Assembly (NCBI GenBank): GCA_964442205.1
Contig: CAYTYF010000002.1
Coordinates: forward strand, 19,336-47,001
Origin: an uncultured Candidatus Saccharibacteria bacterium
Lineage (GTDB): Bacteria > Patescibacteriota > Minisyncoccia > Phycocordibacterales > UBA918
Direction: 5' to 3'
Length of the DNA: 27,666 nucleotides
Shown here: in pieces, positions 3,945 to 15,350 of the stretch
Layout of the letters: every line of letters starts with the position of its first letter
How positions within the stretch are numbered: the stretch's first letter is position 1
Notes under the pieces: model-generated
The model's input: only the letters and a program-made list of their open reading frames with translations
Told to the model about the DNA's origin: nothing
The model's database searches: none
Made by a program: the position numbers and the translations under genes

Positions 3945-4143
3945 GTCCCCGGAATCCTAAGCAAAATTTACACTACGTTCAATTTTGCTAAGGTTCCTGG
4001 ACGGCCGCTCGCATCGCGGGCATTAGGAATAGCCAGCGATATGCTGCGCGGCTTCGATTCCTGACGTACGCAACGAGGTTGCGTACTCTGGGGGCACACA
4101 TGACAAAAGACGGCTTGAGCCGTCTTTTGTCATGTGTGCCCCC
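3945..4143. mobile_element. tRNA-3'-end-associated structured element, tRNA-Arg-matched copy
   Basis: Hairpin 3956-3993 with loop TACACTACGTTC. GGCATTAGGAATAGCC hairpin at 4019-4034. Inverted tRNA-Arg 3' copy TTCGATTCCTG[AC GTACGCAAC GAG GTTGCGTAC T]CTGGGGGCAC at 4053-4097. Perfect 25-bp inverted repeat 4090-4114/4119-4143. The distal direct repeat (3945-3956) is degenerate. Confidence 0.75.
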
Positions 4144-4365
4144 GTGGCGTTGCGGAAAAATACCCATCAAGCCCTGTAAGCGTTTCTTGGTGACTGAAAT
4201 CAGTCTTTCCTGACCCCTCTCGGTAGGGCCTGTTTAAAGCCAGATGTTACAAATCTGACACCCAAACGGCCATTTAATAGGCAACGAATGAGCGATTTTT
4301 TAAAACGGATATGGCTCAAAATAAGGGTATTATCGCTAAAAAAGCCGGTAGTATAATAGAGGTAT

Positions 4366-5082
4366 ATGGACACAAGAAATACACTCTCTGCGCTCCGCCA
4401 AGCTCTCGTACGACGTAAAGCTATCGAGGATCAGGTACGGCAAGCGATAGAACCAATAAAACCAACGCTTCGCTTTATCGCTGAACTTCAGGCTATTTAT
4501 CAGGAAGTATACGGCGCTGAGCCAGTTGCTGAGATATCAGCGGAACCAGCTCTAGAGCCAGTGAAGCAGGTAAAGCCAAAGACCAAGAAGGAGGTCTTAT
4601 TCACTGAGGCGATAGTAAAACTCCCACTTAACGCTAAATGGGAGAAACTCACCATCAGTTTCATCAGTAGCCAAGATATTAAGGTGAAATACGGAGACAC
4701 AACCATCGGTGAGTATTCACACGAGGACTTAGGCTTTGCTCAAGATAATACTGAGTGGAAAAAACCAGACCGACGCTGGGCTCTTTTAACAGTACTGGCA
4801 GTCGCTAGTAAGTTTGAGCCAAAGATGGTGATGACGAAGGATCATCTAATGAACGTCTGCGGAGTGAAATCCCAGAATGCAGTTGAAAAACAAAAGAGTG
4901 ATCTAGCTAAAGGGCTACGCCTTGCGTTTGGCATCCAAGAAGATCCGTTTGAGCGATATACACACGAAACTGGCTACCAGCCCAAGTTCACCCTTCTGCC
5001 TGAAAAAGAGATGCGTGGCGATGGTGAACTACATCATTCAGGAGCGGTAGACTTTGAGGACGTAATATACCAAGACGACTAG
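4366..5082 (+). CDS. Hypothetical protein, possible C-terminal winged-helix DNA-binding domain
   Basis: 238 aa. TATAAT and AGAGG just upstream. C-terminal segment WALLTVLA...NAVEKQKSDLAKGLRLAFGIQEDPF...GY resembles a wHTH (pattern only). Confidence 0.6.
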   Translation: MDTRNTLSALRQALVRRKAIEDQVRQAIEPIKPTLRFIAELQAIYQEVYGAEPVAEISAEPALEPVKQVKPKTKKEVLFTEAIVKLPLNAKWEKLTISFISSQDIKVKYGDTTIGEYSHEDLGFAQDNTEWKKPDRRWALLTVLAVASKFEPKMVMTKDHLMNVCGVKSQNAVEKQKSDLAKGLRLAFGIQEDPFERYTHETGYQPKFTLLPEKEMRGDGELHHSGAVDFEDVIYQDD

Positions 5083-5131
5083 CTTTATAGTGCCCATATA
5101 AATAAGGGTTTACTGTGATAAAATAGGTTTT

Positions 5132-6838
5132 ATGTCAATCGAACGAGGAATTCGGCAAGATGAAACGTGGATCACATCTGATCCAGTAGTTGGGTGTGCT
5201 AAAAACTGCAACTACTGTTTTCTTCAAGGTTATGACAAGACTCAGAAACCAGGTATGCCGATTATGTCGACAGAAAAGGCTGTTGACCAGATTATTTCGT
5301 TCGAAAATTACAGAGAGGATAGTCCAATCATGGTTGGTAGCGAGACTGATGCTTTTATGAATCGGTCAAACATCGACTATTTCACAGAGCTGTTTAAAAC
5401 TTACGCCGAACGAGAGTTGCCAAATCCACTTGTGTTCTCGACTAAGTGCAAAATTCCAGATGAATTCATTGAACTTATAAAGGCAAATGAAGCAATTAAA
5501 ACAGTTTTTTATTTGAGCTACTCAGGTTTGCCACAGACACTGGAACCTGGAATAAAAGGAGATCAGATTAGAAGTAACTTTGAGAGACTCAAAGACGCGG
5601 AGATTCCAACTATCCATTACTGGCGACCGTTTCTCCCACAGAATTCTCATCGTGAAAAGATTCGAGAGATTATTGATTATGTGGCAGAACAAGCTACATG
5701 TAGTGTAGCAGTTGGTCTAAAGAGTAATGATGAAATCATTAAGCACTTGATAGCAGCGTGGCCTGAGCTTGGTGAAAATGCTGATCTGGCAAATCAGTCC
5801 GCTGATGTCTGGCCTGAAGGCGTGAGAGATTATGTAGAGCAGTATACGAGTGAGCGACATCCAGACTATCCGTTGTTTTGGGTGAATTCGTGCGCATTAG
5901 CTTATGCACTGCAACGACCTGATTTCAATGCCATGTTTGAAGGAACGGTATGTGCCGAAAATCATTGCCCTCCAGAACAACGAGAACGATGCGCTATTAA
6001 TCTTCTTGGATATAAGCCGACGAACGATGCCGTACAGGAAGCCTTAGATCAAATGGATTTAGATTACACTTTTGATCTAAACGAAGAAGAGAAGATGATT
6101 TATGTTGACGGTGATGTTAGTCACGGACAACTTATCTACCTGAGACAGAAACTTAACTATCCAATCAAAACACGTGGTGATTTTTCGAGCACCAATGAAT
6201 GGGCTGGTCAAGCATCAAACAGGGAATCAATGCACCTACCGTATGCTTCAGAAAATTTTGATATTGATGTTATCTGGGAACGTGCCCAGTATACTCGCAA
6301 TCTGTTTCGCTCAGTAGAAAGAATTCAGTGGGGTGCTGAACAGTACGCACTTGAGTTAATGGTGCAGGTTGGACACCTTTCTGATTTAGTGTTGCGACAA
6401 GAGCACAAACTTAACAAGCGTTCTGAAGAGGAAAACGCTGATGCTTTGGCTGATGAAATTAGCGATGTGATATTAAATATATTTTCAATTGCCGACGAAT
6501 TTTCTTTGTCGTTGCCGAACTTACTTCGGGATGAAATGGGTTTAAAGCGAACGGAAATAGTAGACAGTGCGCAGTTGGTTGAGGGAAAGCGAATTGAGTC
6601 TGAAGAACAGATTAGTCAGGCAATGCTTGAGCTGTCAAAACAGTCTGCCTTACTTGCGAGCATGGTTACTGAAGTGGTGGAAGATAAAGCAAAGAAAGAA
6701 GACTTAAAGAAAGTTCTCCTAGAAGCGTTTGACGCTGCTATGGCAGTGCTTGATTTCTATAAGGTCAATTTGCATAAAGCTTTCGACAAAATGATCCTAG
6801 AGTCAGAAGCCTTTGTAGAGAAGAATAAGCTTGAATAA
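5132..6838 (+). CDS. Radical SAM enzyme (spore-photoproduct-lyase-like clade) fused to tandem MazG-like NTP pyrophosphatase-fold domains
   Basis: CxxxCxxC motif GCAKNCNYC near the N-terminus; LSYSGL..EP and HYWRP motifs. C-terminal ELMVQVGHL...LADEISDVILNIFSIAD and AMLELSKQSALL repeats have the MazG/dUTPase all-alpha pattern. Confidence 0.75.
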   Translation: MSIERGIRQDETWITSDPVVGCAKNCNYCFLQGYDKTQKPGMPIMSTEKAVDQIISFENYREDSPIMVGSETDAFMNRSNIDYFTELFKTYAERELPNPLVFSTKCKIPDEFIELIKANEAIKTVFYLSYSGLPQTLEPGIKGDQIRSNFERLKDAEIPTIHYWRPFLPQNSHREKIREIIDYVAEQATCSVAVGLKSNDEIIKHLIAAWPELGENADLANQSADVWPEGVRDYVEQYTSERHPDYPLFWVNSCALAYALQRPDFNAMFEGTVCAENHCPPEQRERCAINLLGYKPTNDAVQEALDQMDLDYTFDLNEEEKMIYVDGDVSHGQLIYLRQKLNYPIKTRGDFSSTNEWAGQASNRESMHLPYASENFDIDVIWERAQYTRNLFRSVERIQWGAEQYALELMVQVGHLSDLVLRQEHKLNKRSEEENADALADEISDVILNIFSIADEFSLSLPNLLRDEMGLKRTEIVDSAQLVEGKRIESEEQISQAMLELSKQSALLASMVTEVVEDKAKKEDLKKVLLEAFDAAMAVLDFYKVNLHKAFDKMILESEAFVEKNKLE

Positions 6839-6843
6839 TTAGT

Positions 6844-7488
6844 ATGGAAAATGAACAATTAACCACTTACAACGCCTTCAATCAGCCCATTGGGAAAGCT
6901 GATCGATCTGAAGTGCATAAAAACGGTTTATGGCACCGGTCAGTGAACTACTTAGTTCTCGATCAGCAAAAGCGGACTCTAATCTTTCAAGATTCAAAGA
7001 CTCTAGATCAATTCGATAAGGACACCTTTTTTATCAAGATGAATGGTGGTCATGTTCAGGGTGATGATATGAAAAGTGAGATGGCTCGCGAACTGCATGA
7101 AGAGCTCGGTTTGGAAGCATCTCAAGCGTTGAACATACATTTTCTAGGTGTGTATCAAGTATCGTTCGAGCCAACGGAGGATTTTGTAAACCGTGAGTTC
7201 ATGTATTTTTATCTAGTGAGTTTTGAGAACGTACTACAAAATGTTGGTATGGATGATGCTGAAGTGAAGACAGTTTTAGAAATCCCGATTGATGACACAG
7301 TCGATTTGTTAACTGGTGGGAGAGTGGAAGTTGAGGTGTCTGCAAAAGATGTAAATAGTACAGAAATGAATCTGACTCTCACAAACGAGGCATTCAAGAA
7401 TTTTACCGACGATGCATTGTACTTGAGACTTTTCTTGGCAGCGCAAGATTTTTGCAACGGTAGAGATCCTAAACACATTGTAATTTAG
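6844..7488 (+). CDS. Nudix hydrolase, IPP-isomerase-like subfamily
   Basis: R.EVHKNGLWHRSV N-terminus; Nudix box GGHVQGDDMKSEMARELHEELGL. Starts 5 nt after the radical SAM stop. Confidence 0.85.
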   Translation: MENEQLTTYNAFNQPIGKADRSEVHKNGLWHRSVNYLVLDQQKRTLIFQDSKTLDQFDKDTFFIKMNGGHVQGDDMKSEMARELHEELGLEASQALNIHFLGVYQVSFEPTEDFVNREFMYFYLVSFENVLQNVGMDDAEVKTVLEIPIDDTVDLLTGGRVEVEVSAKDVNSTEMNLTLTNEAFKNFTDDALYLRLFLAAQDFCNGRDPKHIVI

Positions 7489-7520
7489 AACACCCTCGAC
7501 CGGACATGGTCGAGGGTGTT
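7489..7520. terminator. Hairpin between convergent Nudix and NDK genes
   Basis: 13-bp perfect stem AACACCCTCGACC/GGTCGAGGGTGTT with a 6-nt loop. No clear U-tract. Confidence 0.65.
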
Positions 7521-7541
7521 GGTTATGGAGCGTGTTTCGTA

Positions 7542-7961
7542 TCAGAATAGTGACATAACTCGCTCCTTCGAGAAAAAGATCACAGCTTCTCGGAAGAACT
7601 GGTCGAAGTTCATGCTCGAATGTGCGAGGTTGTTGGCTATGTCGGTCCCCATCTTCCGAATGGTTCCCGGCGGACTGAGCTGCGGTTCGTTGATGCCGAC
7701 CAGAAAGTTCAGGCGATCAACTGCTCTGCGGCCGGTGACGATTATTCCGTGACACTCGCCAGAAGTGATGTGCCGGCAGAGGTCTGCGAAGTAGGCTTCC
7801 TCGGCACATTGTTGATAGAACAGCCTCGCCTCAGGAAGAGTGAGACTGCGACGGTCTTGCATAACGATCTCCAACCCGCTGTTGGTGATCATTTCAAGAC
7901 ACTGCTCGACGAGTTCGCGCTCGACACAGTCAGGTTTCAGAAGACACATTGAGTAGATCAT
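7542..7961 (-). CDS. ndk: Nucleoside diphosphate kinase (divergent)
   Basis: LLKPDCVER, PGTIR and NLAHSS (catalytic His). GGAGGT SD precedes the ATG at 7961. 139 aa. Confidence 0.85.
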   Translation of the reverse strand: MIYSMCLLKPDCVERELVEQCLEMITNSGLEIVMQDRRSLTLPEARLFYQQCAEEAYFADLCRHITSGECHGIIVTGRRAVDRLNFLVGINEPQLSPPGTIRKMGTDIANNLAHSSMNFDQFFREAVIFFSKERVMSLF

Positions 7962-8098
7962 TGAACCACCTCCATTGGTGCGAAAATTGGTGTCTGGCTG
8001 CATAATGCCATTATTTTGATAAAAAGCAAGGTTTTCGCTGAAATCTCAGCAGTAGATGGTAGAGGGACCATTAATATAAAACACCCTCGCAATCTACT

Positions 8099-9373
8099 AT
8101 GAGTAATAAAATTACTTGGCACACCGAGACTCGCAAAGTCGATGATCTCGTGCCATACGACAAGAACCCTCGCACCTTGTCGGACAAACAACGTAAAGAC
8201 CTTGAAGCGAGCATTATCAAGTTCTCTCTAGCGGAGATTCCTGCGATCAACACCGATAACACTATCGTGGCAGGGCACGCCAGACTGAAGGTAATGCAAC
8301 TACTCGGTCGCGGGCAAGAAAAAATTGACGTGCGAGTACCAAACCGCACCCTTACCAAAAAAGAGTTCGAGGAATACCTCCTGCGTTCCAATAAGAATAC
8401 CGGCTCGTGGGACTACGAGCTCTTGCAAGGCTTCGATACTGAATTCCTCTTGGATATCGGATTCGATGACGGCGACCTCTCTGACATCTGGGACGATGTG
8501 CTCGAGATTGATGACGATGAGTTCAATCCAGAGAAGGAGCTGAAGAAAGCTGAGAAAACTGACATTAAGTCTGGTGACTTCTTCAAGCTCGGTAGCCACT
8601 ATCTCATCTGTGGTGACAGCACGAACCCCGAGACAGTGAAGCGACTCGTTGGTGATACCAAGATCGACATGTCATATGTAGATATTCCGTACAATATCGG
8701 ACTTTCGTACGATAAAGGCATCGGTGGCAAGAAGAGCTACGGCGGTGTCGTTGACGATAAGAAGACAGACGCTGAGTACCGCACCTTTGTACGTACACTA
8801 ATGCAAAATGCGGTGGACGTTTCTGCTAAGGACTCGCACCACATCTGGTACTGCGATTCAGCGTATGTAGGCATGCTTCAAAACCTATTCGTTGAGGCAG
8901 GTATCGCATACAAACGCACTGCACTTTGGATCAAAAACGGTATCAATCCAACGCCACAAGTAGCGTTCTCGAAAATCTACGAGCCTGCGCTCTACGGCAC
9001 GATTGGTAAACCGTACCTCTCTAAGAAACACACCAAGCTCGCCGAGATTCTGAATAAAGATATCGGTATTGGTAACGCTACCATCGATGATGTCACTGAC
9101 ATGATCGATATCTGGCTCGCTAAGCGTGACGCAGGTCAATCCTACGATCACCCAACGCAGAAACCGCTGTCTCTGCATGAGCGACCACTTAACCGTTGCA
9201 CCAAGATCGGTGATAACGTACTCGATCTCTGTGGTGGTTCAGGTTCAACCCTCCTTGCGTGTGAGCAAATGAAACGTAATGCGTTTCTGGTCGAGCTCAA
9301 CCCCGTCTTTGTTCAGGTAATCATCAACCGCTATGAAAAATTCACTGGCACCAAAGCTACCAAGATCAATTAA
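8099..9373 (+). CDS. ParB/Srx-N domain fused to an N6/N4 DNA methyltransferase (beta arrangement)
   Basis: LVPYDKNPR...IVAGHARL (ParB-like). DIPY catalytic motif variant, HPTQKP, and VLDLCGGSGSTL SAM-binding motif. Confidence 0.85.
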   Translation: MSNKITWHTETRKVDDLVPYDKNPRTLSDKQRKDLEASIIKFSLAEIPAINTDNTIVAGHARLKVMQLLGRGQEKIDVRVPNRTLTKKEFEEYLLRSNKNTGSWDYELLQGFDTEFLLDIGFDDGDLSDIWDDVLEIDDDEFNPEKELKKAEKTDIKSGDFFKLGSHYLICGDSTNPETVKRLVGDTKIDMSYVDIPYNIGLSYDKGIGGKKSYGGVVDDKKTDAEYRTFVRTLMQNAVDVSAKDSHHIWYCDSAYVGMLQNLFVEAGIAYKRTALWIKNGINPTPQVAFSKIYEPALYGTIGKPYLSKKHTKLAEILNKDIGIGNATIDDVTDMIDIWLAKRDAGQSYDHPTQKPLSLHERPLNRCTKIGDNVLDLCGGSGSTLLACEQMKRNAFLVELNPVFVQVIINRYEKFTGTKATKIN

Positions 9374-10148
9374 GACGGGGGACATCATCTGTCTTGGTGA
9401 GCACGTCCTTATCTGCGGTGATTCTTCCAAGGTAGACCTCTCTGTCTACGGGAACATCGACCTCTTGCTGACCGACCCGCCGTACGGCGTGGACTACGCT
9501 GAAAGCAAGCGTGGCATCGGCAAGATTGCCAAGGATAAAGACATCTCTAATGACGGATTTATGTCCGACCAACAGTACGTTGAGTTCACGAAGAGCTGGC
9601 TTTCTCCAGCACTGGTGAAGCTGTCCAAGAAAAACAGCATCTACATCTTCAATTCCGACAAGATGATCTTCGCTCTCCGTCAGGCCTGCCTTGAGGCAGG
9701 TATGAAAATTGCCCAACTTATCGTCTGGGTGAAGGATCGAGCGATTGTCGGGAGACTCGACTACCTGCCGCAACACGAACTCATTCTCTACGGCTGGAAA
9801 GGTACGCACGACTTCAAGCGTGGCAAAGACAAGTCAGTCGCGTTCTACCCAAAGCCTTCGCAAAGCAAACTCCACCCGACGATGAAACCAGTCGGACTAC
9901 TCCGCAGACTGATTCTTAACAGTACGAAGGTTGGTGACACCGTCTATGACCCATTTGGTGGCAGTGGCTCAACCTTGATTGCCTGCGAGCATACGAAGCG
10001 TAAGTGTATTACGGTCGAGATGGATCCAGAATATTGCGAAACCATCGTTGCTCGCTGGCTAAAACTCACTGGTAATGGACAAGCGCGAGAAGCGGATACA
10101 GGAGCGGATCCTGAAACAGCAAGAGAAAGTACTCCAGTCTCTGCGTGA
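9333..10148 (+). CDS. Second N6/N4 DNA methyltransferase
   Basis: LTDPPYG, HPTMKPVGL and DPFGGSGST motifs. Overlaps both neighbours. Confidence 0.9.
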   Translation: MKNSLAPKLPRSIKTGDIICLGEHVLICGDSSKVDLSVYGNIDLLLTDPPYGVDYAESKRGIGKIAKDKDISNDGFMSDQQYVEFTKSWLSPALVKLSKKNSIYIFNSDKMIFALRQACLEAGMKIAQLIVWVKDRAIVGRLDYLPQHELILYGWKGTHDFKRGKDKSVAFYPKPSQSKLHPTMKPVGLLRRLILNSTKVGDTVYDPFGGSGSTLIACEHTKRKCITVEMDPEYCETIVARWLKLTGNGQAREADTGADPETARESTPVSA

Positions 10149-10515
10149 ATCGGGTAACGTGAGCTTTGCGTGCAAGAAGGCTGGTCTCAGTCGAGAGACG
10201 TACTATCGCTGGATGAAGGAGGATGAAGACTTTGCAGTACAGGCTGATAAAGCGATTGGTGACGGCAAGAGTTATGTAAATGACTTGGCGCATAATCAGC
10301 TTATGCGAAGTATCAGTGAAGGCTACTTTCCAGCCATCAAGTTTCAGTTGAGTAACTGTCACGATGATTATCATCCGAAGAAGACCACTTCACCGTACCG
10401 TCTTGAAGAGATGACACCACCAATCACGATTACCTCCATTCCAACTATCGCTCGCCTTGAGCGATATCGAGAGTTTATCGAGAATGGAGGTCACCCCGAC
10501 GATTGGGAAGGATAA
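10075..10515 (+). CDS. Phage terminase-small-subunit-like HTH protein (phBC6A51-like)
   Basis: LQSLRESGNVSFACKKAGLSRETYYRWMKEDEDF HTH pattern, located immediately after a ParB-MTase as in phage packaging modules. Confidence 0.7.
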   Translation: MDKREKRIQERILKQQEKVLQSLRESGNVSFACKKAGLSRETYYRWMKEDEDFAVQADKAIGDGKSYVNDLAHNQLMRSISEGYFPAIKFQLSNCHDDYHPKKTTSPYRLEEMTPPITITSIPTIARLERYREFIENGGHPDDWEG

Positions 10516-10549
10516 AAAATAAACCACTGTACGTCAGTGGTTTATTTTT
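10514..10549. terminator. Bidirectional terminator
   Basis: AAAAATAAACCACTG-TACGT-CAGTGGTTTATTTTT inverted repeat between convergent reading frames. Confidence 0.75.
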
Positions 10550-10760
10550 ACATTCCCGCCCTCGCGCAGTCTGCTTTCTCAATATCTTTCCACTTAAGGT
10601 AGTTTGGCTGGTCTTCGGCTTGCAGATAGGCGGCTGTGACCATTCCTGCTTGTACGCATATTTCAATTGCGTCACCACCTTGTTTGGCAAGGTTGTATTG
10701 TCGGACAGAATCAGCTGCGACTTGGTCTTCAATTTTATTGAGGTCATTAGCCGCCAGGTC
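10548..10760 (-). pseudogene. 5'-truncated gene fragment (70 codons) starting right after the tRNA-Arg 3' end
   Basis: Frame not in the ORF track: DLAANDLNKIEDQVAADSVRQYNLAKQGGDAIEICVQAGMVTAAYLQAEDQPNYLKWKDIEKADCARAGM*. Protein-like, has no N-terminal start, and ends at the terminator. Confidence 0.6.
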
Positions 10761-10771
10761 TCACTATTGGG

Positions 10772-10843
10772 TGCCCCCAGCAGGAATCGAACCTACATCA
10801 AGAGCTTAGAAGTCTCCTGTTCTATCCATTGAACTATGGGGAC
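10772..10843 (-). tRNA. tRNA-Arg(UCU)
   Basis: Cloverleaf: acceptor GTCCCCA/TGGGGGC, anticodon loop CTTCTAA, T-loop TTCGATT. No encoded CCA. Confidence 0.95.
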
Positions 10844-10960
10844 GGGCGCTACCACAATACCAAATATCTAAGGTGGGGGAAACGAAAGAAAACAAAGGCG
10901 TCCACAACAGTGGGCGCCCTACGTTATGTACATACACCTTTGCGTTGCGTGCGAACGGGG

Positions 10961-11176
10961 TCAGATGTCAGCCCAGTCAGTGAAACGCATGGGTTTCTGA
11001 GGCCTTACTGTGAGCAACAGATTAGCAGTGCCTGGTCCGTCCTTCTTGGGCGTTTGTGCTTGCATGTGTCGCTCACGGTCATCGGAATCGCCTTGCTGTC
11101 TCCTGTCCTGGTACCCGCCATCCCCATGCTGCTGTCCTGGATGGGGATAGATGTGGTTTGATGTGTCTTGTGCCAT
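10961..11176 (-). CDS. Small hydrophilic orphan protein ending in RFTDWADI (71 aa)
   Basis: Strong SD (GGAGGTG / GGGAG) upstream, and an AT-rich promoter-like region (TTGCTT...TATAAG) before it. Confidence 0.6.
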   Translation of the reverse strand: MAQDTSNHIYPHPGQQHGDGGYQDRRQQGDSDDRERHMQAQTPKKDGPGTANLLLTVRPQKPMRFTDWADI

Positions 11177-11259
11177 TTCTCCCTTCCTTCACCTCCGTCT
11201 ACTTATAACACCACATAATTTTTAAAAAAGCAATTTTTATCAATCTGTACCTGTGTATA

Positions 11260-11287
11260 AAAAAGAAGGCGCCGCTTAATGCGGCGC
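11260..11287 (-). terminator. Intrinsic terminator for the 11295-11486 gene
   Basis: GCGCCGC-TTAAT-GCGGCGC (11269-11287), followed by CTTCTTTTTT on the minus strand. Confidence 0.7.
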
Positions 11288-11294
11288 TGTATAT

Positions 11295-11486
11295 TCACCA
11301 ATCTCGTTCACGATAGCGAGGCGGTGAAACTGGGCCTAGATCGCGGTTAGCCCGTGCGGCATCCCGTTCTCGGAGTGTACGGATCTCCGCTTCGTCGTCC
11401 GGATGCTCATTATCGTGCACAGGCTCGAGCTTCGCATCGAAATCAAGGCGCGGCTTCAGCGGCTCGTCTTCATCAGGGTTAGCCAT
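11295..11486 (-). CDS. Small charged orphan protein (63 aa, MANPDEDE...)
   Basis: GAGGA SD before the ATG at 11486, with a terminator downstream. Confidence 0.55.
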   Translation of the reverse strand: MANPDEDEPLKPRLDFDAKLEPVHDNEHPDDEAEIRTLRERDAARANRDLGPVSPPRYRERDW

Positions 11487-11607
11487 TTGAGCGTTCCTCT
11501 TTCCTCGTCCGAAATAGAGCGAGGATAAAAGTACGATACGCTGAAATTTTAATTTGTAAACGGTGTGGTGAGACTTGGTCACTCTCATGGATCTTTTCTG
11601 ATAAATA

Positions 11608-11802
11608 ATGAGAGATTTGTCCCGCTTTTTCTAAACTCACTACGTTCGCTAAGAATGCTGGACGCAGCCCACTCGTTTTGGCATTAAGATAGCCAAAACA
11701 TCCTTCCGCTGTTCAAGTCTCTACGGAAAGCACGCAGGTGCTTTCCTCATCGTGCACGAATAAAAAATCGCCCACACAAAGGTGAGCTGATTTTTATACT
11801 CG
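11608..11802. mobile_element. tRNA-3'-end-associated structured element, tRNA-Val-matched copy, directly abutting the tRNA
   Basis: Direct repeat ATGAGAGATTTG (11608-11619) vs tRNA 11809-11820, 1 mismatch. CACTACGTTC loop. TTTTGGCATTAAGATAGCCAAAA hairpin. Inverted tRNA copy GTTCAAGTCTCT[AC GGAAAGCAC GCAG GTGCTTTCC T]CATCGTGCAC at 11711-11757. Spacer hairpin. Confidence 0.8.
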
Positions 11803-11875
11803 TGCGCGATGAGAGACTTGAACTCCCGACCTTCTCGGTGTAAACGAGCTGCTCTACCAACTGAGCTAATCGCGC
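11803..11875 (-). tRNA. tRNA-Val(UAC)
   Basis: Acceptor GCGCGAT/ATCGCGC, anticodon loop TTTACAC, T-loop TTCAAGT. No CCA. Confidence 0.95.
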
Positions 11876-11938: not shown

Positions 11939-12211
11939 ATGGTAGAGATACAATGCGTCATTTCAGGGAAGGTGCAGGGCGTTCGGTATCGCGATTTTGT
12001 GCAGGTGTCGGCGACCGAGCTTGGAGTTGTGGGGTACGTAAGAAATGTGGAAGATGGTACCGTGCTCGTGTGCGCTCAGGCTTTACCCGATATACTTAAA
12101 GAATTCATTGAATATCTCCACGAGGGATCGCTCTTGGCCCGGGTCGATGCGGTCTCCGTCGACTGGAAGTCACCAAAGGTAACATTTGATGATTTTTCAA
12201 TTCATCACTGA
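11939..12211 (+). CDS. acyP: Acylphosphatase
   Basis: ISGKVQGVRYR...GYVRNVEDGTV signature. Confidence 0.9.
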   Translation: MVEIQCVISGKVQGVRYRDFVQVSATELGVVGYVRNVEDGTVLVCAQALPDILKEFIEYLHEGSLLARVDAVSVDWKSPKVTFDDFSIHH

Positions 12212-12212
12212 C

Positions 12213-12959
12213 ATGCATACAGAACCAACGATCATATATGAGGATGAAGCGATGGTGGCGATCAACAAACCAGCCGGTTTGCTCGTGCACGCTGATGGTC
12301 GCAGCAATGAAACTACCGTGGTCGACTGGTTCGAGTCTCGCTGTCCGACTGCCATCGGGGTGGGTGAACCTCAGCGTGGCGATGATGGGAAAGAGCTCAA
12401 GCGTTCGGGAGTGGTACACCGTTTGGACCGTGAGACCTCAGGCATCATGGTGCTCGCCAAGACACAGGATGCATTCACGCACCTCAAAGCACAGTTTCAT
12501 GATCGGTTAGCACAGAAGGAGTACCGTGCCTTCGTGTACGGCGCAATGCGTGAACGCTGGGGGACCATTGATCGCCAGATCGGTAGGAGTGCTTCTGATT
12601 TCCGTCTTCGTTCGGCGCAAAAGGGAGCAAAGGGAACTATGCGTGATGCGGTAACGGACTGGGAACGCATTGCTGCTGGTCAGTACCAAGGTGAACTGTT
12701 CTCGTACGTGAAGCTTAAGCCGAAGACAGGACGGACCCACCAGCTGCGAGTACACTTGAAAGCTATCGATCGGCCGATCGTCGGTGATGCTTTGTATGCT
12801 CCATCTTTCGTCGAACGTTCCTCGAATCTGGGGCTGGAACGCTTGGCACTCCACGCGCATTTGCTCGAATTGACCTTGCCAAATGGCTCACTCGAGCGCC
12901 TGATCGCACCTTTGCCGCCCGTATTTGAGGAGGCTGCAGAACGCATTGCAGAGCAGTAA
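12213..12959 (+). CDS. RluA-family RNA pseudouridine synthase
   Basis: INKPAGLLVH, VHRLDRETSG (catalytic Asp), TGRTHQLRVH and LHA motifs. Start placed at ATG 12213, just after the acyP stop. Confidence 0.92.
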   Translation: MHTEPTIIYEDEAMVAINKPAGLLVHADGRSNETTVVDWFESRCPTAIGVGEPQRGDDGKELKRSGVVHRLDRETSGIMVLAKTQDAFTHLKAQFHDRLAQKEYRAFVYGAMRERWGTIDRQIGRSASDFRLRSAQKGAKGTMRDAVTDWERIAAGQYQGELFSYVKLKPKTGRTHQLRVHLKAIDRPIVGDALYAPSFVERSSNLGLERLALHAHLLELTLPNGSLERLIAPLPPVFEEAAERIAEQ

Positions 12960-13011
12960 TTGGTGTGGTAGAGTACCCGAGCTTTTAAAGCGCTATTTTA
13001 TTATCTATTAT

Positions 13012-13614
13012 ATGAACACGACACTCACAGGCATCGCCATCTCTCCGGTCGCGATGGATAACCGCAAGGAGCTCGGCCTCAAGGCTGGCGATACCGTGCG
13101 CGTTCACCAGAAGATCCAGGATAAGGGCAAGACCCGTATCCAGGTGTTCGAGGGCATTGTCCTCGCTCGCAAGCACGGCACAGAGCCGGGCGCTACGTTC
13201 ACTGTTCGCAAGGTAGCGAGCGGTGTCGGCGTAGAAAAGATCTACCCACTCTACTCACCGAACATCGATAAGATCGAGATCGTGAAGCGCGCCAAGGTTC
13301 GTCGTGCCAAGCTCTACTTCATCCGTGAGAAGGTTGCTCGCGAGATCAAGCGTCAGATGCGTCGCATGAGCCTGCTCTCTGTTACCTCACTCTCTGAGGC
13401 AGAAGAAGCAAACCGTATCGAGGCTGAAGCGAAGGCTGCTGAGGCAGCAGAGAAGCTCGCACTCGAGGAGGCTGAACTCAAGGAGAAGGAAGCTGCTGAT
13501 GCCAAGGCTGCTGCTGAAGCAGCTGCTGCACCTGAACCAGCACCGGAAGCAGAAGTTGCAGAACCCGAAGCTCCCGAAGCAGCTGTTGAAGAAGAAAAGA
13601 AGGAGGAGGCATAA
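13012..13614 (+). CDS. rplS: 50S ribosomal protein L19 with long acidic Ala/Glu C-terminal extension
   Basis: GDTVRVHQKI..K.RIQVFEGIV...FTVRK..SGVGVEKIYPLYSP.I.KIE...KVRRAKLYF signature. Confidence 0.95.
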   Translation: MNTTLTGIAISPVAMDNRKELGLKAGDTVRVHQKIQDKGKTRIQVFEGIVLARKHGTEPGATFTVRKVASGVGVEKIYPLYSPNIDKIEIVKRAKVRRAKLYFIREKVAREIKRQMRRMSLLSVTSLSEAEEANRIEAEAKAAEAAEKLALEEAELKEKEAADAKAAAEAAAAPEPAPEAEVAEPEAPEAAVEEEKKEEA

Positions 13615-13618
13615 AGCC

Positions 13619-13658
13619 GCACGAAAAAGGCCGACCTTCAGTCTGGCCTTTTTCGTGC
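13619..13658 (+). terminator. rplS terminator
   Basis: GCACGAAAAAGGCC.../...GGCCTTTTTCGTGC inverted repeat containing a U-tract. Confidence 0.75.
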
Positions 13659-13720
13659 CACATTATCTTGAATTAGCAACAACTCTAGTGCATAATGGCC
13701 CAGCCGCGAAAACGCGATCT

Positions 13721-13804
13721 GTCCAGGTGGCGAAATTGGTAGACGCGCTACCTTGAGGGGGTAGTGGGAGTTATCCCGTGCTGGTTCAAATCCAGTCCTG
13801 GACA
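13721..13804 (+). tRNA. tRNA-Leu(GAG)
   Basis: Acceptor GTCCAGG/CCTGGAC, anticodon loop TTGAGGG, long variable arm, T-loop TTCAAAT. No CCA. Confidence 0.95.
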
Positions 13805-13973
13805 CATGCAATATAAGGACGCGCTTAGGCGCGTCTTTTGCATGTGCCCAGGACTGGATTTAGAAGGCGAGCGACGTGAGGGGCAATTCTTAATGCCCCG
13901 AGCCAGTGATGCCTGGGCAGGTAACTCTTATGAGCGTAGCGAATTAGAGTTGGACGCCAAATCCAGTCTTGAC
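13805..13973. mobile_element. tRNA-3'-end-associated structured element, tRNA-Leu-matched copy (more diverged, opposite orientation)
   Basis: Spacer hairpin, then inverted tRNA copy GTGCCCAGGACTGGATTT (13844-13861). GGGGCAATTCTTAATGCCCC hairpin (13880-13899). AACTCT...GAGCGTAGCGA...AGAGTT hairpin (13923-13951). Direct repeat AAATCCAGTCTTGAC (13959-13973). Confidence 0.75.
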
Positions 13974-14040
13974 CGATTCGTGATCAAAAGTTCTGTGTGA
14001 CCTGATCCAGTCATTGCATCAAGCCTGCTATACTACTGCC

Positions 14041-14478
14041 ATGGAAACAAAACAAGAGGAAGGGTTCGGTATCATTCCGGTCGCCAAGATCGACGGAGTG
14101 TGGAAGGTGTTCCTCATCCACCAGATAAGTCGTCATGGTGATTCCTTCTGGGCCTTCCCTAAGGGTCATGCGGAAGGGGAAGAAGGAGGACTAGAAACAG
14201 CTGAGCGCGAACTAAAAGAGGAGACCGGCCTCGTGGCATCGAGCATAGATAGCCATTGCGTCTTCACCGAGTACTACGCTTTCAAAGAAGGCGACACAGA
14301 GATCGAAAAGACTGTTACCTACTACTTAGGTTACATCGAAGATCTAGAAAGTACGCTGCAGGAAAAAGAGGTCAGTGAAGCTGGCTGGTTCGAACTTGAG
14401 GATGCGCGCGAAAAACTGACCCACGAATCGAAGCGAGAGCTGATCGAAGAGCTGCAGACTCAATTACGCAAGGTTTAG
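14041..14478 (+). CDS. Nudix hydrolase, Ap4A-hydrolase-like
   Basis: WAFPKGHAEGEEGGLETAERELKEETGL Nudix box; EKTVTYYLG; ..QEKEVSEAGW. Confidence 0.88.
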   Translation: METKQEEGFGIIPVAKIDGVWKVFLIHQISRHGDSFWAFPKGHAEGEEGGLETAERELKEETGLVASSIDSHCVFTEYYAFKEGDTEIEKTVTYYLGYIEDLESTLQEKEVSEAGWFELEDAREKLTHESKRELIEELQTQLRKV

Positions 14479-14522
14479 AGCTACAAATAAAGCTAAAATT
14501 AGCTTTGTGATACACTACGCCC

Positions 14523-15350
14523 ATGTTCAAAAAGGCGATATTGGGTGTGGTGCTTGGACTTATCCTGGTGCCGAACGTGAGTTTGGCGGCGAACGTAGAG
14601 CGGCAAGCGCTACTTAAGCAAATAGAAGTGCTCACCAAGGAAGTTGCTCGATTGCAGGCTTTGCTCGCGGAGCGGTTGAAGGACGACGATACTTTTTACT
14701 CCAGTACCGCCGAAACAAGGTACACCGTTGTCGACGGTCAGCTCGTGCGTGGTCGAGCTGAACCACGATCTACCCACCAAGAACTTTTCACGGAGCTGAA
14801 AGAAGTGATAGGCAGGTCGGCAGTGGAGCAGTACATTGGAGAGTTTCGAGTCGGTCATGTTCGCGATAGTTCGCAGGAGAACTACATCGAGGGGTACGTA
14901 GAAATGCTGTCTGATTCAAACCAGTGGGTGCTCACCTTGCGGCGCGATGGCACCAAGCCGCTCAACGACGAGGAGCGGGAGCTATTCAAAGAATTGTTTG
15001 TGCACGAATATGCGCACATACTCCTCGATGCTGAACCCACCTTCACCGCTGCATACACGAATCGTTTTTGGGGTGATGGCACGTACCGTGAGAGTGCTCG
15101 CGCCAAGCGTCTCTATGAGCGAGGGGGCTACGGTGCACTAGAAGATGCCCATGAAGGTCTAGGTGGTCAGTTTGCCAGCGGTTACGCTATGCTGAATCCG
15201 AATGAAGACATGGCTGAGACCTTCGGATTGTTCGTAGAAGAAGGGTACCCTGACGGCAACTCCACCATCGAGAACAAGCTCCGTTTTTTCTACGCCGATA
15301 CCTCACTCGTATCCGAGCGTGATCGCCTGCGCGCCAACTTAGGACTCTAG
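14523..15350 (+). CDS. Secreted putative zinc metallopeptidase
   Basis: Signal peptide ending SLA-A, short coiled coil, HEYAH (HExxH) and downstream YAMLNPNEDMAETF. Confidence 0.75.
   Translation: MFKKAILGVVLGLILVPNVSLAANVERQALLKQIEVLTKEVARLQALLAERLKDDDTFYSSTAETRYTVVDGQLVRGRAEPRSTHQELFTELKEVIGRSAVEQYIGEFRVGHVRDSSQENYIEGYVEMLSDSNQWVLTLRRDGTKPLNDEERELFKELFVHEYAHILLDAEPTFTAAYTNRFWGDGTYRESARAKRLYERGGYGALEDAHEGLGGQFASGYAMLNPNEDMAETFGLFVEEGYPDGNSTIENKLRFFYADTSLVSERDRLRANLGL

Follow-up and report, generated by a model that had tools for sequence, protein, structure and literature searches.

In the genome of an uncultured Candidatus Saccharibacteria bacterium, the tRNA-Arg(tct) gene lies 6.6 kb away from a small structured element whose 3' arm matches it. 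The intervening DNA, positions 4144-10770 of the 27,666 nucleotides analysed here (the window, G000:C2:19336-47001), is probably a decayed copy, without an integrase, from a family of small integrative islands of Saccharibacteria that occupy tRNA tails and are most likely of the serine-recombinase type. This view is based on evidence obtained here, namely conserved ends, an attP-like joint, unoccupied sites, horizontal transfer and a mosaic make-up of the island. An earlier reading of the window from its letters (the sequence-only reading) had left two models side by side, in which either cargo entered at the tRNA end and displaced a resident element, or cargo and element form one mobile unit; our results uphold the former and speak against the latter. 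An island insertion explains the 6.6 kb gap between the Arg-matched element and its tRNA, and two things can now be separated: resident tRNA-linked elements, and islands that insert at the tRNA tail. The source genome (G000) comprises 929 kb in 76 contigs and is 98% complete; other genomes, contigs and loci are given G, C and L numbers.

Conserved island ends and an attP-like joint

The two junctions of the island consist of the following features.

3945-4135, + strand: resident element matched to tRNA-Arg(tct), with a 5' stem-loop domain, a core, a split 3' arm and a bidirectional terminator hairpin (fold z-score -11)
4136-4143, + strand: distal common core GTGCCCCC, the final 8 nt of the hairpin arm, where the element joins the island L-arm
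4144-4262, + strand: L-arm, the conserved distal island end, with (G/T)TGGCGTTGCGGAAAAATACCC, a GACCCC..GGTAGGG hairpin and TTACAAATCTGACACCC before the first gene
10756-10770, + strand: R-arm remnant AGGTCTCACTATTGG, retaining most of the invariant block of the family, TAGYGAGACCTA (tRNA sense)
10770-10843, - strand: tRNA-Arg(tct) (ARAGORN and Rfam), intact, 60.9 bits with a full-length model match, its 3' terminus holding the proximal core copy

The 8-mer GTGCCCCC at 4136-4143 recurs on the + strand at 10771-10778, within the tRNA-Arg(tct) terminus. On both strands of the window it was counted three times against 0.55 expected, and none of 100 shuffles reached three, which bears out the match between hairpin end and tRNA terminus that the sequence-only reading had picked up. 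At the far junction, only 8 nt of the tRNA 3' part are repeated.

A search with the island cargo matched genomes labelled Candidatus Saccharibacteria and led to contig L098 (the entire G114:C24), which carries a homologue of the first island gene, i238, and the start of a radical-SAM gene. At L098:3617-3666, the right end of the window island (GGTCTCACTATTGG), the 8-mer and the left end (TGGCGTTGCGGAAAAATACCC) run contiguously. In tRNA sense, with slashes marking the boundaries, the tRNA side of the window reads ...CTGGGGGCAC/CCAATAGTGAGACC, the far side ...CCGCAACGCCAC/GGGGGCAC/ACATGACAAAAG and the G114 joint ...CCGCAACGCCAA/GGGGGCAC/CCAATAGTGAGACC, and the reconstructed empty site has the layout seen at tRNA-Val and tRNA-Leu, with the hairpin continuing into the tRNA. 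Compared in this way, these four behave like the attB, attL, attR and attP of an integrative element. R-arm, core and L-arm are contiguous in three genomes, G114, G027:C51 and G064:C83 (loci L098:3617-3666, L101:139-200 and L102), and the joint looks as an attP would be expected to look.

With the 201-nt R-core-L joint as the query, 36 of 165 same-family genomes were matched. The complete R-arm is ~100 nt long, contains a terminator and a structured segment and closes with the invariant TAGYGAGACCTA block (tRNA sense), after which come 4-5 variable bases and GCAC. It directly adjoins tRNA-Arg(tct) in 14 distinct loci, and it also adjoins tRNA-Arg(gcg), tRNA-Lys(ttt) and tRNA-Gly(tcc); every R-arm/tRNA junction shares GTGC, and all target tRNAs terminate in GCAC. 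The L-arm, present in at least 10 loci, lies 1.5-18 kb from the R-arm and is preceded by GTGCCCCC in the window, in G125, G021, G169 and G118, at L046 and L110, and in the G114 joint. The window L-arm is 84% identical to that of L098 and 76% identical to that of G125.

Complete R-arms can be seen at L002:878-983 and L100:1366-1470. By eye, their nested hairpin shows apparent compensatory changes (CTGAGA..TCTCAG versus TCGAGA..TCTCGA, and GGGG..CCCC versus GAGGC..GCCTC), while RNAalifold on 12 R-arms supported the terminator stem only. Since the R-arm becomes the 3' trailer of the tRNA after insertion, it may matter for tRNA processing or termination.

Unoccupied sites

Our survey took in 50 distinct tRNA-Arg(tct) loci, drawn from metagenome contigs and from relatives in the genus; part of them had been picked through the arms, so that the counts are not frequencies. 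An element with an antisense T-loop copy stands directly behind the tRNA in 13 of the 50 loci, which is the empty arrangement that the sequence-only reading had proposed to look for. The R-arm takes this position in 14, and the remainder have other layouts, including hairpin-type elements. Locus L106 offers an unoccupied target with an identical tRNA tail. In G170 the tRNA tail, identical to that of the window, runs into its own element and the island lies beyond the elements, its R-arm adjoining a 19-nt copy of the tRNA tail; in G159, too, an element sits between tRNA and island. Whichever the order of events, the G170 layout means that element and island are separate entities.

An integrase-bearing sister island and the mosaic make-up of the window copy

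The island comprises 6.6 kb between element and tRNA-Arg and holds eight open reading frames (ORFs), arranged as follows.

4366-5082, + strand: i238, a 238-aa protein, the first gene past the L-arm in four genomes
5132-8003, mixed strands: low-GC inserted radical-SAM/NUDIX/NDK module (Pfam matches), consisting of the next three genes
5132-6838, + strand: 568-aa radical-SAM protein (Pfam)
6844-7488, + strand: NUDIX protein (Pfam)
7542-8003, - strand: nucleoside diphosphate kinase, NDK (Pfam)
8099-10515, + strand: methylase/helix-turn-helix (HTH) block (Pfam, PADLOC and PHROGs scans), consisting of the next three genes
8099-9373, + strand: ParB-like plus N6/N4 DNA methylase (library matches)
9333-10148, + strand: second DNA methylase (library matches)
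10075-10515, + strand: hth146, an HTH protein similar to a small terminase subunit (library matches)
10475-10747, - strand: o90, a short ORF of 90 aa with its 5' part cut off, as seen against G125

A sister island occupies the same site in the complete genome G125 (L099), where tRNA-Arg(tct) is followed by the R-arm, 17.7 kb, the L-arm, GTGCCCCC and the hairpin of an element with its own AC-9bp-T hairpin. Beside its L-arm, between the arm and the i238 homologue, this island encodes a 468-aa protein (int468, L099:17461-18864) with Resolvase, Recombinase and Zn-ribbon (Zn_ribbon_recom) domains. None of the eight ORFs of the window island gave a recombinase or transposase catalytic domain with Pfam, PADLOC or PHROGs, and the only matches of such a kind were weak ones, below the Pfam cut-offs, to the helix-turn-helix domain of hth146. 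The remark of the sequence-only reading that the island lacks a recombinase gene is thus correct for the window copy, whose sister in G125 carries one, and the missing gene may reflect loss or absence of a large serine recombinase.

Protein identities between G125 and the window amount to 97.4% for the ParB-methylase, 97.8% for the second methylase, 97.2% for the HTH protein, 73% for i238 and 59% for o90, and the cargo is 92.4% identical over 2721 nt at the nucleotide level. However, the core gene o257 (12186-12959) shows merely 66% identity between G000 and G125, so the methylase/HTH part of the island was exchanged recently. Consistent with a foreign origin is the base composition: GC is 45.5% in the island and 42.7% at 5083-8034, compared with a genome mean of 51.9% (sd 2.6%, 3-kb windows), and only 0.6% of the 3-kb genome windows fall under 43%.

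At the position of the G125 integrase, the window has the L-arm hairpin running straight on into the i238 promoter region. No integrase stands there in G064 either, and in G114 the place is taken by an unrelated 224-aa gene with a duplicated hairpin around it. The window-G125 homology ends at 10754, within o90, and the last 15 nt of the R-arm follow four bases on. A deletion has taken out all that lay between o90 and the end block of the R-arm. The radical-SAM/NUDIX/NDK module is missing from the G125 island and was gained by the window copy; the radical-SAM start is 98% identical in G114. Taken together, these comparisons depict the window island as a mosaic, the left part nearest to G114, the right part nearest to G125, and the integrase lacking.

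A probable serine recombinase for the islands

Relatives of int468 (45-53% identity) lie within R-arm islands in G114:C9, the proximal island of G125, G163:C3, G063:C1 and, at tRNA-Gly, G111:C5. At E<=1e-90 the clade was found in 21 of the 36 genomes with arms versus 30 of the 129 without; as related genomes are not independent, this co-occurrence lends weak support to the link. The six genomes searched for Phage_integrase-family proteins (tyrosine recombinases) gave one match each, of ~315-430 aa and away from the islands, which from its size we take to be Xer-like.

An intact small island of the same build was noticed in the source contig itself, at tRNA-Arg(gcg) ~4.4-7.4 kb to the left of the window start (G000:C2:~11950-14953). 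It runs from an element through GAGTGCCCCG, a diverged L-arm, a 449-aa serine recombinase (int449, 48% identical to int468) and a 297-aa ORF to the tRNA. The tRNA-Arg(gcg) terminus is GTGCTCTC, and the far junction has CCCC where the tRNA has TCTC, which places the exchange point within or just after GTGC. Across targets only GTGC of the 8-mer is common, suggesting that the crossover probably occurs there. In the joint, GGG-TG-CCC forms a short inverted repeat around TG. An inverted-repeat layout is expected around the crossover dinucleotide of serine recombinases, as in the Bxb1 and phiC31 sites, and by this analogy the joint would fit a serine-recombinase crossover.

On another, short contig of G000 (C72:1-2208) we noticed genes for a DNA methylase and for an HTH protein sharing 32% identity with hth146, together with the initial 118 residues of a serine recombinase. 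The latter is the nearest candidate in G000 for an enzyme acting in trans.

The resident tRNA-linked element

The Arg-matched element, including the terminal 8 nt, spans 3945-4143. Its core GGCATTAGGAATAGCC lies at 4019-4034, and its 3' arm consists of TTCGATTCCTG (4053-4063), an AC-9bp-stem-T hairpin (4064-4087) and CTGGGGGCAC (4088-4097); without this hairpin, the arm equals the tRNA-Arg 3' end in 21 of 21 bases. The 5' arm resembles the tRNA-Arg(tct) tail only poorly. Two 26-nt arms (4090-4115 and 4118-4143), 100% complementary to each other, form the terminal hairpin. Two further tRNA genes of the window have elements of this kind.

11802-11875, - strand: tRNA-Val(tac) (ARAGORN and Rfam)
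13721-13805, + strand: tRNA-Leu(gag) (ARAGORN and Rfam)

At both, the element hairpin passes directly into the tRNA, and the His copies of the element retain merely GGGC or GGGCG at the core position, just as the sequence-only reading had described. An nhmmer profile built from the five element copies in the window matched beside many other tRNAs of G000, and members of this family stand behind most of its tRNAs. Perfect direct copies of the 18-nt tRNA tail occur 125-200 nt downstream of tRNA-Gln, Asp, Gly, Phe, Leu(caa) and Pro, and several further G000 tRNAs have near-perfect tail copies behind them. The element is a resident feature of tRNA genes and does not belong to the 6.6 kb island.

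In its 5' and core portion (3945-4060), the Arg(tct) element is 96% identical to the element behind tRNA-Arg(tcg) (G000:C65:1-72) and 88% identical to that of tRNA-Gly(tcc) (G000:C34:2422-2540), while the tRNA-matching arms of the three differ. In G002 (C29 and C7, L029), at least five Val-armed element 3' halves follow tRNA-Val at intervals of 1.5-3.3 kb, a stack resembling that at tRNA-His in the window. Neither the element nor the L-arm nor the R-core-L joint gave a family in Rfam, and the sole match was a sub-threshold RNAI on the terminator.

Alternative explanations

That cargo and Arg-matched element move as one unit, similar to an integron cassette with the element as its distal end, is very unlikely. 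Such a unit would account for the elements that punctuate the stacked units at tRNA-His in the window and for the Val-armed element halves of G002, and the L-arm does abut the element hairpin in the window and in G125. However, the L-arm of one island and the R-arm of another meet without an intervening element in G114, G027 and G064, an element separates tRNA and island in G170 and G159, where in G170 the island lies past the element, and elements stand behind most tRNAs without any cargo. The two parts also differ in their kinship, with the element core resembling the two other G000 elements named above and the cargo nearest to the G114 and G125 islands. Even less credible is that the region is ancestral and that the 8-nt match is the arm of a local hairpin and nothing else. 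The 8-mer does pair inside the hairpin, and the stretch from tRNA-Arg(tct) to tRNA-Ser/Arg(gcg) is variable throughout the relatives. Against this stand the 97% protein identity of cargo shared with G125 versus 66% for a core gene, the low GC and the conserved ends joined elsewhere; moreover, no island gene was present behind tRNA-Arg in 18 genus relatives, so the ancestral synteny that would have spoken against an insertion did not emerge. The 8-mer rather plays both parts: it closes the local hairpin, and it is the common core at which a site-specific insertion took place. An equally negligible chance is left to a transposon with an 8-bp target-site duplication: there are 8-bp direct repeats at both ends and hth146 is weakly similar to a transposase HTH domain, but a search for inverted repeats at the island ends (4144 and 10770) found none, no transposase is encoded, and the same core and arms at the same tRNA position in many genomes argue for site-specific recombination rather than duplication.

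Site-specific integration by another enzyme, either the single tyrosine recombinase or an unrecognised protein such as i238, is a less remote alternative, though still an improbable one. i238 is the one gene always beside the L-arm and belongs to no known family, most arm-bearing islands lack a serine recombinase, G021 has an island and no Resolvase-domain gene at all, and an 8-bp shared core would also suit tyrosine recombinases. Yet i238 has no recombinase features in any library, the tyrosine recombinase match is single-copy and unlinked to the islands in the genomes searched, and serine recombinases lie physically within arm-bounded islands in at least five genomes. An entry of cargo at the tRNA end, with the element displaced, is borne out by the attP-like joint, the integrase-bearing homologue at the same site, the protein identities indicating horizontal transfer and the unoccupied sites. 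Several observations weigh against the favoured explanation with its serine recombinase. The window island has no recombinase, and the role of any recombinase at these sites is a proposal; an integrase stands right beside the L-arm in one island only, that of G125, and other integrases of the clade sit at far ends without a recognisable L-arm. As three of the four L-arm/i238 islands have no integrase, the family could have started out without one. The nearest int468 relative in G000 is the 118-residue fragment, 65% identical and cut by the C72 contig end. The loci behind the counts were chosen in part by arm searches. Finally, the sequence-only reading had suggested looking for circles: the expected junction of R-arm, GTGCCCCC and L-arm does exist in three genomes, but all three contigs are linear, with no terminal overlap when tested for circularity and with genes on both sides, and the joints are probably tandem, island-to-island junctions in the chromosome.

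Cargo genes and surroundings of the island

No family could be assigned to two of the eight island ORFs. i238, with 81% identity in G114, 73% in G125 and 55% in G064, matched no Pfam, PADLOC or PHROG family, and the Atlas gave hypothetical proteins only. The radical-SAM/NUDIX/NDK trio recurs as a unit in three other Saccharibacteria (L095, L096 at G026:C2:148985-151820, and L097) with 59-80% protein identity, 75-78% for the radical-SAM protein; no tRNA, arm or integrase was present inside the fetched flanks. The cargo of other family members is varied and usually without integrase, including Fic/DOC proteins (G019 and G013), a STAND-like ATPase (G170), a methyltransferase with a MazG-like protein (G169), and an IS30-like transposase, YecM, a guanylate kinase and a DegT aminotransferase (G118). 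The 224-aa ORF of G114 is membrane-anchored (L098:3700-4470) and has a copy of the CCCCTTTSGGTAGG hairpin on either side, as if a one-gene cassette had entered at this hairpin.

On the - strand between tRNA-Arg and the Val element (10844-11600), we recognized by eye two small acidic ORFs of ~57 and ~65 aa, each of which has its own terminator and ribosome-binding site; in the program-made ORF list they appear with other starts or frames. To the left, the flank proteins of 832 and 243 aa had no tblastn match in the fetched loci of relatives, and a DNA search with the element and left flank against 60 relatives gave nothing useful, the flanks not being conserved. The right window edge cuts through a tRNA (ARAGORN, Rfam). 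Both this contig (window 27613-27666) and G000:C24 (14667-14739) terminate within tRNA-His, and the assembly break possibly reflects alternative orders of stacked units within the population.

Discussion

Our results support a model in which site-specific recombination would place islands at the very 3' end of tRNA genes that close with ...GCAC. In the window, such an island would have entered tRNA-Arg(tct) and parted the tRNA from its resident element, so that the element hairpin abuts the L-arm and the tRNA abuts the R-arm; both junctions carry the common core GTGCCCCC. The recombinase would most likely be a large serine recombinase as in the G125 sister island, with its crossover within GTGC (GCAC in tRNA sense), and the window copy would have lost its integrase by deletion. 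With a full L-arm and 15 nt of R-arm that include most of the invariant block, this copy could still move in trans, and it may equally be fixed in place. More tentatively, and with rather less likelihood than the model itself, a clade of large serine recombinases in Saccharibacteria might have taken the niche that elsewhere belongs to tyrosine integrases, reading GCAC plus the T-arm of several tRNAs and moving, largely in trans, a pool of very small cassette-like islands with nothing but two conserved ~100 nt arms to define them; the elements would serve as extra landing pads, as in G170, and the whole would amount to an integron-like exchange system made from different parts.

With their clear ends, the islands lend themselves to tracing gene flow among ultra-small, host-dependent bacteria, where accessory genes (methylases, Fic proteins and nucleotide-modifying modules) are housed in island units. 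If the linked serine recombinases do use the tRNA terminus, they would constitute compact site-specific integrases with natural sites that can now be defined. In a limited literature search we found no published description of serine-recombinase islands at tRNA ends in Saccharibacteria, and the mobile-element surveys consulted did not report serine integrases at tRNA genes.

Among known systems, SCCmec (staphylococcal cassette chromosome mec) and pseudo-SCC composite islands occupy the 3' end of rlmH (orfX) in staphylococci and are moved by the large serine recombinases CcrAB or CcrC. The islands described here share with them a target at the very 3' end of a conserved housekeeping gene, which survives the insertion, as well as short direct repeats, tandem accretion, varied cargo, many units without recombinase and, as proposed here, the enzyme class. 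Unlike SCCmec, they target the tRNA terminus (GCAC plus T-arm) of several tRNA identities, measure 1.5-18 kb with conserved ~100 nt arms, and reside in an ultra-small bacterium of the candidate phyla radiation.

Classical genomic islands and prophages at tRNA genes (P4- or lambda-like) employ tyrosine integrases, and sublocation classes for tRNA-targeting islands were reportedly set out by Williams in 2002. Similarities lie in the targeted 3' part of the tRNA, the restored complete tRNA, the foreign GC and the decay to integrase-less remnants. In contrast, no tyrosine integrase occurs in or near the present islands, the linked enzyme is a serine recombinase, and the shared core does not exceed 8 nt where classical islands have a long tRNA 3' copy of 15-50 nt or more. 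Mycobacterial prophages likewise use tyrosine integrases at tRNA genes and serine integrases elsewhere (PMC10654092).

Integrase-less cis-mobilizable elements (CIMEs) and similar elements flanked by att sites, as well as defective integrative mobilizable elements (IMEs; PMC7168690), are known from the literature on streptococcal integrative conjugative elements (ICEs) and IMEs. Like CIMEs, the window island has no integrase and may still have att-like ends, so that it would be mobile only via a related element in trans; its L-arm is complete, but its right arm is down to 15 nt. Integron cassettes resemble our islands in their small size, with many units of just one or two genes, in their stacking at a single site and in having no recombinase of their own. 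They differ in that IntI, attI and attC are absent here (attI was not searched for), with no IntI candidate at the islands and the sole tyrosine recombinase match unlinked in the six genomes searched, in that the element is not part of the unit, and in that the linked enzyme is a serine recombinase. Integrative islands with integrase-less remnants are of a known kind; less common are the combination of a serine recombinase and a tRNA terminus, the small size of the units and their conserved arms.

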